64,000 nt of DNA from an uncultured Candidatus Saccharibacteria bacterium (GTDB lineage: Bacteria > Patescibacteriota > Minisyncoccia > Phycocordibacterales > Zambryskibacteraceae): assembly GCA_964348525.1 (NCBI GenBank), contig CAYGCY010000001.1, forward strand, positions 21,873 through 85,872, in the 5' to 3' direction. Positions within the stretch are counted from its first letter, which is position 1. Each line of letters opens with the position of its first letter. Below are positions 54,586 through 55,503 of the stretch, in pieces. The translations under genes were made by a program, and so were the position numbers. The notes beneath the pieces are model-generated. The model did no database searches. It saw only the letters and a program-made list of their open reading frames with translations, and was not told the DNA's origin.

Positions 54586-55503
54586 ATGGCAAACAGACAC
54601 CTTTCGAGATCAATAGTCCTCCAATCTCTCTTTGAATGGGACTTCTTCGACTTGAAGCCCTCTCAAGTAAAAGCCGTTGTAGAAAGAAACGCACAGGAAT
54701 TTGCACCAGGGATGAAAGATGTTTCTTTTGCTGAAAATTTAGCAAAGGAGGTAATCAAGAAAAAGAAAGATTTAGATTTAATAATAGAAAAAGCTGCACC
54801 TGACTGGCCAATTGATAAAATAAATGGAGTAGATAGAAATGTTTTGAGACTTGGGCTTTGTGAACTGCTGTTTTCAAATAGGGAAGAGGTCCCGCCTAAG
54901 GTTGCCATAAATGAAGCCATTGAACTTGCGAAAACGTTTGGAGGGGAGACTAGTGGAAAGTTTGTAAATGGGGTCTTAGGTGCGGTCTACAAAGAGATGG
55001 GGGAGCCGGGGAAAGAACAGCAATCTAGCAAAGGCGCAAAAGGCAAGAAAAACAGCCTAGACGATCAGAACATTCCTCTAGAACAGTTGGGAGGGGCGGT
55101 AGTTTATGCAAGAGATAATGACAAAATATACATAGCACTTGTCCATGATGTTTTTGGGCACTGGACTCTTTCTAAGGGCAAGCTTGAAGGTGAAGAAAAA
55201 GTGAAAGATGGTACTGAAAGAGAGATAAAAGAAGAAATAGGTTTGGATATAAAAATAAAAGAAGATTTAGGTGCCAACGAATATATTGCTTATCATCCAG
55301 AAAAAGGAAAATTAAGAAAAAGGGTCCATTATTTTTTAGCAGAAGCCGATTTTGAACCTTTGAAACTTGAATCTAGCGGGGGTTTGGATGATGCGAGATG
55401 GTTTACCGTAGCAGACATTGTGGACCTCAATTTTTATGATGACGTTTTGCCCATTGTTACGAAAGCCGTAACCCTCCTTGCCGAAAAGTATTCCAGACAA
55501 TAA
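54586..55503 (+). CDS. nusB: NusB antitermination factor fused to a C-terminal NUDIX hydrolase domain
   Basis: N-terminal ~140 aa NusB ([46 protein letters not shown]), Gly/Lys linker, then a Nudix box [24 protein letters not shown] within a ~140-aa Nudix fold; single uninterrupted ORF. Confidence 0.75.
   Translation: [305 protein letters not shown]

Follow-up and report, generated by a model that had tools for sequence, protein, structure and literature searches.

The 5' ends of bacterial RNAs can carry dinucleoside polyphosphate (NpnN) caps that the Nudix enzyme RppH removes (PMC7044304, PMC8833179), and the Firmicutes counterpart of this cap removal is YqeK (PMC13010140). NUDT2, a hydrolase of diadenosine polyphosphates (ApnA), turns 5'-triphosphorylated RNA (PPP-RNA) into 5'-monophosphorylated RNA (P-RNA) (PMC8616924). 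For the Nus factors it is known that a boxA element at most 50 nucleotides (nt) from the start codon mediates autorepression of suhB (Baniulyte et al. 2017, PMC5725501), and the same autorepression was proposed for rpsJ and, via ribH, for nusB (PMC5725501). A physical link between NusB and a Nudix domain was not found in the searched literature, including a review of the Nudix clan. Here, we describe a gene that encodes both in one protein and is termed nusB::nudix. It is located in a stretch of 64,000 nt (the window) from an uncultured Candidatus Saccharibacteria bacterium (contig CAYGCY010000001.1, positions 21,873 to 85,872 of the forward strand). Where databases give such proteins a name, it is merely 'NusB'. 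The architecture is thus apparently undescribed, which is in agreement with a preliminary description of this DNA.

That NusB, a linker and a Nudix domain are joined in a single protein is near-certain. The gene and its parts are arranged as follows.

54586..55503, + strand: nusB::nudix open reading frame (ORF), 305 amino acids (aa) plus stop codon, ATG start, zero internal stops
54586..55002, + strand: NusB domain, aa 1-139, all-helical (PF01029, TIGR01951, Foldseek)
55003..55080, + strand: flexible linker, aa 140-165, with a conserved GEPGK at its start followed by a Lys-rich patch and with low AlphaFold2 confidence
55081..55500, + strand: Nudix domain, aa 166-305, alpha/beta/alpha sandwich (PF00293, AlphaFold2, Foldseek)
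55177..55245, + strand: Nudix box, aa 198-220, GX5EX7REUXEEXGU

The Pfam search placed PF01029 (NusB) at aa 7-136 (E=7.5e-33, 114.2 bits against a cutoff of 23.1) and PF00293 (NUDIX) at aa 173-281 (E=8.8e-12, 45.6 bits against 21.1). Both domains exceed the gathering scores, so that the Nudix profile is significant. The preliminary description had reported a 305-aa ORF with a whole NusB, a Lys/Gly-rich linker, a whole Nudix domain and an intact Nudix box. An ORF at exactly these coordinates contains the two Pfam domains in a single frame, and aa 198-220 match each defined position of the Nudix consensus. The start codon is considered correct because the N-terminus MANRHLSRS is kept in homologues, with M1, N3 and R4 invariant. 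No other NusB or Nudix ORF was found in the 64-kb window.

A search of 5.8 billion proteins yielded at least 8000 scored candidates, of which the best 120 were inspected for domains. All 120 contained PF00293 and PF01029, were 63-90% identical to the window protein, measured 295-333 aa and originated from NCBI, JGI, ENA and Logan assemblies. A second search with a profile of divergent members listed 119 further proteins that were absent from the first search. All 119 were two-domain proteins, with names including Paceibacter, Terrybacteria, Moranbacteria and Pacebacteria. The 239 listed homologues range from 282 to 337 aa and carry both domains in each case, and the architecture with both Pfam domains is present in thousands of public records annotated only as NusB. 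At the level of genomes, contigs of one genome per species provided at least 530 candidate loci with a relative. The best 80, which are species-level loci of Paceibacteria/Minisyncoccia, all encode a full-length fusion in a single frame. The nearest of these (locus L001, 88% protein identity) is a metagenome-assembled genome of Minisyncoccia, and the organism of the window itself belongs to the Minisyncoccia (Paceibacteria, Parcubacteria). The fusion is also encoded in the closed genome CP129473.1. An exhaustive HMMER scan with only the Nudix domain as query, run on 1.84 billion cluster representatives (50% clustering), returned 172 matches at E<=1e-10. Of these, 41 were full-length NusB-Nudix proteins, with Nudix identities as low as about 30%. 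The mean identity to the window protein is similar for the two domains (NusB 69%, Nudix 63%), and purifying selection therefore acts on both. The preliminary description had asked for the same fusion in related genomes and for the exclusion of a frameshift or stop artefact; the homologues and loci listed here provide the former, and the conservation of a single frame across genomes provides the latter.

One explanation of such a protein is that a sequencing or assembly error merged adjacent nusB and Nudix genes. Apart from being an a priori possibility, it can draw on a few database entries that consist of the Nudix part alone. Each of them is either a singleton on a short contig or visibly frameshifted (P0140), so that no candidate for a truly unfused close copy was left. 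Cross-genome conservation refutes this explanation: the same one-frame architecture recurs in the 239 listed independent protein clusters from four sources, in every inspected species-level locus and in the closed genome, which leaves a merging error with a negligible chance. By its sequence, nusB::nudix thus appears to be a genuine, ancient and vertically conserved bifunctional protein of the Paceibacteria/Minisyncoccia (Patescibacteria), ultra-small, uncultivated bacteria that make up a large class. Some variations of the architecture were encountered among the relatives. P0227 (577 aa) has a long N-terminal extension ahead of NusB-Nudix, P0198 is a tandem double Nudix of the same subfamily, and P0142 combines an EndoV fragment with a Nudix domain and is possibly chimeric.

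The NusB part scored 124.2 bits with the NCBIfam nusB equivalog TIGR01951 (cutoff 88.35). Its best solved relatives are the NusB proteins of Aquifex, Thermotoga and E. coli, with Aquifex NusB reaching 9e-20 in a sequence search of the PDB. AlphaFold2 modelled most of aa 11-130 with a predicted local distance difference test (pLDDT) score of 86-96. In Foldseek, the domain matched Aquifex NusB from the complex with NusE and boxA (3r2c/3r2d) with a template modelling (TM) score of 0.87, a root-mean-square deviation of 1.9 A and 30% identity. The C-terminal motif of the domain (27 aa) is almost identical to that of E. coli NusB, and F16, which is invariant in close homologues, aligns to E. coli Y18, the position of the nusB5 allele. 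With the equivalog cutoff passed and the fold matched, aa 1-139 are a bona fide NusB, probably that of the organism, which would be expected to bind NusE/S10 and boxA RNA.

AlphaFold2 predicted two well-folded domains at aa 1-139 and about 160-303, separated by aa 140-159 with pLDDT below 50. The Lys/Gly-rich linker of the preliminary description is confirmed, and disorder is predicted for it (pLDDT about 34). Over 348 distinct fusion proteins, which also provided the residue counts given below, the linker has a median length of 26 aa (range 12-44) and a net charge of about 0, with 20% K, 15% E and 11% P. G139, E140, P141 and G142 are invariant in close homologues. A uniformly basic, RNA-binding linker was considered and ruled out by this net charge and by the short Lys patch having acidic residues on both sides. 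The full-length model has a predicted TM score (pTM) of 0.48. Given this value and the disordered linker, a fixed mutual orientation of NusB and Nudix is not predicted, and a stable interface between the two domains was rejected as unsupported. A linker of about 26 residues could span up to about 90 A.

Modelled by itself, the Nudix domain reached a pLDDT of 92 and a pTM of 0.86 with an alpha/beta/alpha layout, and hundreds of Nudix entries in the PDB support this fold in Foldseek. The best match is the Aquifex Ap4A hydrolase 3i7u (query-normalised TM 0.77-0.81), followed by the ApnA hydrolase Rv2985 of M. tuberculosis, the Ap6A hydrolase Ndx1 of T. thermophilus, CT771 and MutT1 of M. smegmatis. 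The Ap4A hydrolases of C. elegans and human and NrtR are found next, with Dcp2, NUDT12 and NudC lower down. ApnA-hydrolase entries among the top matches are 3i7u, 9cxx, 4mpo, 1vc8, 1ktg and 3u53, and no entry described as RppH was present among the 50 best structural matches. A phmmer search of the PDB gave a similar picture, with Ndx1 (3.4e-6) and CT771 (7e-6) ahead of the Aquifex Ap4A hydrolase and M. tuberculosis Rv2985, and with Dcp2 more distant. Orthology to named families was rejected in every case for which models were compared. The NudH-type RppH models gave 22 against a cutoff of 118 bits (NF001936), 15.9 against 139 (NF001937) and 12.1 against 116 (NF001938), the YtkD/BsRppH-type model TIGR02705 did not match, and MutT (TIGR00586) gave 14.5 against 97.9 bits. 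MutT1 (NF052459) is the best NCBIfam Nudix match and lies far below its cutoff (28.7 against 475 bits), covering only model positions 5-113 of 292. 'RppH-like', the term used in the preliminary description, consequently does not stand as a family membership, since the RppH models reach only 12-22 bits against 116-139 and the ApnA hydrolases and MutT1 are closer. Because curated cutoffs are missed and because of its nearest neighbours in sequence and fold, the domain is assigned to a putative uncharacterised subfamily in the ApnA-hydrolase/MutT1-like part of the Nudix clan. Over the fusion proteins its net charge has a median of -7, which makes it an acidic domain.

Standalone members of this subfamily also exist. 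Nine such relatives, about 28-36% identical to each other, have an invariant full catalytic box, and none of ten standalone relatives scanned reached the cutoff of a named family. NusB, rnc or rpmF were found near standalone genes of the P0168 type in 0 of 80 metagenome loci, a scan that was judged uninformative and whose loci were at most 39% identical to the window's Nudix domain. In P0231, a Nudix domain of the same subfamily follows a sigma70_r4 and DnaA_C helix-turn-helix and contains an 'RK' variant box.

Every catalytic residue is present in the window protein, and the full catalytic set was found in 12/12 sequences at least 80% identical to its Nudix domain. On this basis the window protein is probably an active hydrolase. 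Over the whole fusion family the picture is less uniform. E213 (codon 55222-55224), the first Glu of REUXEE, is present in 71%; the 102 of 348 proteins lacking it have K (52), V (22), A, I, R or G instead. In this subset E204 is found in 75%, R212 in 67% and E216 in 73%, while the pocket residues are undiminished, and the full catalytic set occurs in only 4/34 of the most divergent representatives. K197 (essentially 100%), W193, T194, D188, Y233, W272 and Y284 are conserved in 97-100% of all fusion proteins, H or Y predominates at position 192, and both Ndx1 and CT771 have a Tyr aligned with Y233 (97-99%). E217 is kept in 96-100% of the proteins with and without E213, and by alignment it is equivalent to E50 of Ndx1, which is replaced in the crystallised E50Q variant. 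From the mutagenesis of the C. elegans Ap4A hydrolase, we take the ApnA-hydrolase signature to be a Lys before the box Gly, a His or Tyr six positions upstream and, further downstream, a Tyr that stacks on the base. Gln at the E213-equivalent of that enzyme reportedly lowers kcat about 10^3-fold, and at the E217-equivalent about 10^5-fold. The property conserved throughout the family thus appears to be the nucleotide pocket together with E217, and turnover may be weakened or lost in some lineages. E213 is relaxed in the fused family but not in the nine standalone relatives, which points to altered constraints following fusion.

A boxA-like motif directly precedes the gene.

54575-54583, + strand: boxA-like motif GTTCTTTCA at positions -11 to -3, ending 3 nt before the nusB::nudix ATG; candidate autoregulatory NusB/NusE site

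The region up to 40 nt upstream of the nusB::nudix start was inspected in the window and the 80 best loci. A GYTCTTTMA site with at most one mismatch was found in 35 of 81 loci, compared to 2.6% of random windows from the same loci, and in 0 of 65 regions upstream of rpmF. The exact GYTCTTT core was present in 28 of 81 loci (1.2% expected) and upstream of rnc or smc in 0 of 64. One related locus (L003) contains a perfect GCTCTTTAACA. The family consensus A-GTTCTTTAA is similar to the boxA consensus GYTCTTTAANA (PMC5725501). Counted over the window alone, the 9-mer shows no enrichment (6 sites, 5.3 expected), and apart from the one before nusB::nudix its sites fall within genes of the opposite strand. 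The enrichment is therefore one of position across loci only, because the count for the window alone is not significant. The recurrence of the site before nusB::nudix supports a genuine boxA-binding NusB and suggests that the gene may be autoregulated by NusB/NusE in many of these genomes. If autoregulatory, it would extend Nus-factor autoregulation far beyond the gamma-proteobacteria.

The gene is embedded in the conserved order dnaE(-) - rnhB - rpmF - nusB::nudix - rnc - smc, followed by rnr(-). The elements flanking it are the following.

54255..54479, + strand: rpmF, ribosomal protein L32 (Pfam Ribosomal_L32p)
54476-54547, + strand: hairpin and U-rich tract between rpmF and nusB::nudix, minimum free energy -41.6 kcal/mol, z = -6.1 against shuffled sequences
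55515..56219, + strand: rnc, RNase III (Pfam Ribonucleas_3_3, Ribonuclease_3, dsrm), starting 11 nt past the nusB::nudix stop

In 79/80 loci rnc follows nusB::nudix directly (median gap about 7 nt), and rpmF is found upstream in 65/80. The same gene order is present in the more divergent loci L161-L163, with the closed genome CP129473.1 among the divergent members. Because adjacency and the short gap are conserved, nusB::nudix and rnc form an apparent operon. Further genes of RNA metabolism surround the fusion; in addition to RNase III (55515-56219, +), RNase HII is encoded at 53592-54215 (+) and RNase R at 59726-61741 (-), the latter with an equivalent location in L162 and L163. A scan for promoters near nusB::nudix identified 7 against 5.6 expected, which is not above chance, and an Rfam scan of the 64-kb window detected three tRNAs only. 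The hairpin was considered as a conserved regulatory RNA and rejected as such. Similar terminator-like hairpins occur only in some related loci (L001, L010) and their sequence is not conserved, so that it is most simply explained as the likely rpmF terminator.

The remaining genes of this region are mentioned for completeness. The smc-like gene (56795-58996, +) encodes 733 aa, compared to 739-750 aa in relatives (L161-L163). At a Pfam E<=0.001 its product matched SMC_N and ATPase families of the AAA/ABC type and did not match the hinge family. It may be a shortened SMC form typical of this clade. Two small ORFs separate dnaE and rnhB. The product of the first (53028-53285, +) resembles the Phd/YefM antitoxin with 26 bits, which is under the Pfam cutoff. 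It has a counterpart in 1/80 related loci and is probably a local insertion. The second (53334-53588, +) encodes a hydrophobic protein of 84 aa that belongs to no family. Between rnc and smc, an ORF on the opposite strand (56442-56738, -) encodes 98 aa without a Pfam match that are hydrophobic and membrane-like by sequence; its counterpart is found only in the closest locus, L001.

Our preferred reading of nusB::nudix is a pyrophosphohydrolase or decapping enzyme that is delivered by boxA to the 5' ends of nascent RNA, and we put its probability at roughly 0.4; NusE/boxA binding, substrate and co-transcriptional action are all inferred. The NusB moiety, together with NusE/S10 on elongating RNA polymerase, would bind boxA RNA and thereby bring the active site of the Nudix domain to a distance of tens of angstroms from the RNA 5' region. 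Nascent transcripts that bear boxA would be targeted, namely rRNA leaders and the nusB::nudix mRNA itself. There, the Nudix domain would act on RNA that starts with a polyphosphate or a cap (pppN-, Np(n)N- or a different nucleoside diphosphate linked to X) and leave a 5'-monophosphate. This end could license 5'-end-dependent decay or maturation of rRNA leader fragments alongside the co-transcribed RNase III. Expression of the protein would be autoregulated via the boxA-like site at the translation start. Cleavage of 5' ends or caps is favoured because tethering should raise the local concentration only for a polymer-bound substrate. An RNA end is also plausible as substrate because the nearest clade consists of ApnA hydrolases, of which NUDT2 trims PPP-RNA, and because of the apparent operon with rnc and the nearby genes for RNase R and RNase HII. 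The more specific proposal, in which the tethered enzyme acts co-transcriptionally on both nascent rRNA and its own mRNA and lineages lacking E213 perhaps retain it as a 'reader' of 5' ends or nucleotides, is somewhat doubtful.

Several observations weigh against boxA-delivered 5'-end processing. Neither of the known bacterial RppH families is orthologous, and entries described as RppH are absent from the top 50 fold matches. With its charge of -7, the Nudix domain looks more like an enzyme for small nucleotides than a binder of RNA in general. Only about 43% of the close loci contain the boxA-like motif, and it is absent upstream of nusB::nudix in L161 and L163. The window and the related loci contain no rRNA gene from which a leader boxA of this clade could be taken for comparison with the motif. 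Finally, catalysis appears not to be universally required in the fusion family, because 29% of its members lack E213 and the other box residues decay in these proteins while the pocket is kept.

The charge and the family relationships would also suit a housekeeping hydrolase of free nucleotides (ApnA, oxidised (d)GTP as for MutT1, or similar). Its gene would have run into nusB when a stop codon was lost in a streamlined genome, and the tether would ensure co-expression while being mechanistically idle with respect to transcription. The closest solved relatives, Ap4A/Ap6A hydrolases and MutT1, act on free nucleotides, MutT1 is also the best NCBIfam match, no stable domain interface is predicted (pTM 0.48), and same-subfamily relatives with an invariant catalytic box live without NusB. 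An idle tether is difficult to reconcile with a fusion that was kept throughout the class at identities as low as about 30%, with a linker held at 12-44 aa and with apparent unfused close copies that turned out to be fragments or frameshifts. It also leaves the relaxation of E213 in the fused family only, and not in the nine standalone relatives, unexplained, and the loci of standalone relatives lack the nusB adjacency that could explain read-through, in a scan judged uninformative. We consider such an uncoupled enzyme unlikely. The decay of the box leads to a different explanation, according to which the Nudix domain is a ligand-binding or structural module for which hydrolysis is dispensable, either a reader of nucleotides or 5' ends or an enzyme-derived structural subunit of the antitermination complex, like SuhB in E. 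coli. Such a module would tune NusB in response to ApnA, ADP-ribose or another nucleotide. A class of Nudix domains without enzymatic activity is well established (PMC5389931), the sensor domain of NrtR figures among the top matches by fold, and P0231 exemplifies the same subfamily fused to helix-turn-helix domains with a variant box. The 102 proteins without E213, in which E204, R212 and E216 have fallen to 67-75% and K197, W193, Y233, W272 and Y284 remain at 97-100%, and the full catalytic set in just 4/34 of the most divergent representatives also speak for a binding function. A pure binder would not be expected to keep E217 at 96-100% even in the degenerate subset; moreover, E213 is retained in 71% of the family, the window protein and its close clade keep all catalytic residues (12/12), and an interface with NusB is not predicted. 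This module is judged slightly less likely than the uncoupled hydrolase. With both alternatives considered, a NusB-tethered 5'-end hydrolase remains our preferred working model.

If correct, nusB::nudix would encode the first bacterial 5'-end-modifying enzyme that is built into the antitermination machinery, and this enzyme would be standard in a whole class of Patescibacteria. A mechanistically meaningful tether would imply that bacteria couple the removal of 5' triphosphates or non-canonical caps to transcription elongation complexes, a conceptual parallel to the cap metabolism coupled to Pol II. It would bear on the handling of rRNA leaders and capped RNAs and on the roles of Np(n)N and nicotinamide adenine dinucleotide (NAD) caps and of ApnA alarmones. 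It also touches the little-known RNA biology of the Patescibacteria, with their minimal genomes and dependence on nucleotide salvage. The fusion is clean, widespread and experimentally tractable, as the recombinant 305-aa protein allows a direct test of co-transcriptional 5'-end processing. One member of the class, Minisyncoccus archaeiphilus (PMC12281837), has by now been cultured.

The comparison with known systems can be drawn for each part of the protein. With canonical NusB from Aquifex aeolicus and E. coli, the N-terminal domain has in common the equivalog score, the all-helical fold, the C-terminal motif and the aromatic residue equivalent to Y18. Canonical NusB stands alone with its about 140 aa, whereas here a linker and a 140-aa enzyme domain are added C-terminally. 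The genomic place also differs, as the gene lies by rnc in an apparent operon and not next to ribH as reported for pseudomonads. The best matches of the Nudix domain are the ApnA hydrolases (3i7u aq_158, 1vc8 Ndx1, 4mpo CT771, Rv2985/MutT1 and NUDT2) with 23-26% identity and TM scores of 0.67-0.81 when query-normalised and 0.72-0.88 for single-domain targets. A WT-x-x-KG motif ahead of the box, the Tyr at Y233 (Ndx1, CT771) and the catalytic Glu corresponding to Ndx1 E50 are held in common. Differences from these hydrolases are the identity of only about 25%, the fusion to NusB and the relaxation of E213 in part of the family; MutT1 chains of 280-295 residues additionally contain a C-terminal domain that is missing from the window protein. 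RppH (NudH of E. coli, YtkD of B. subtilis) has the Nudix fold and box in common with the fusion, and its chemistry from 5' polyphosphate or cap to monophosphate is the one proposed here, for which the tether would make sense, but it is a free-standing, non-orthologous enzyme, while here the Nudix domain is built into a transcription factor. Non-catalytic Nudix domains of the NrtR and DBC1 type have the same fold, and a degenerate box with a kept pocket is also seen in part of the fusion family. Unlike these domains, the window protein has a perfect box and no winged-helix DNA-binding domain, and E217 is nearly universal in its family. A precedent for the delivery of an enzyme to rRNA by an N-terminal NusB-like module is the 16S rRNA methyltransferase RsmB/Sun, whose NCBIfam models match the NusB part of the fusion weakly. 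In RsmB the partner is an S-adenosylmethionine-dependent methyltransferase and the NusB-like domain is not an antitermination factor, whereas the NusB domain of the fusion passes the true-NusB equivalog.

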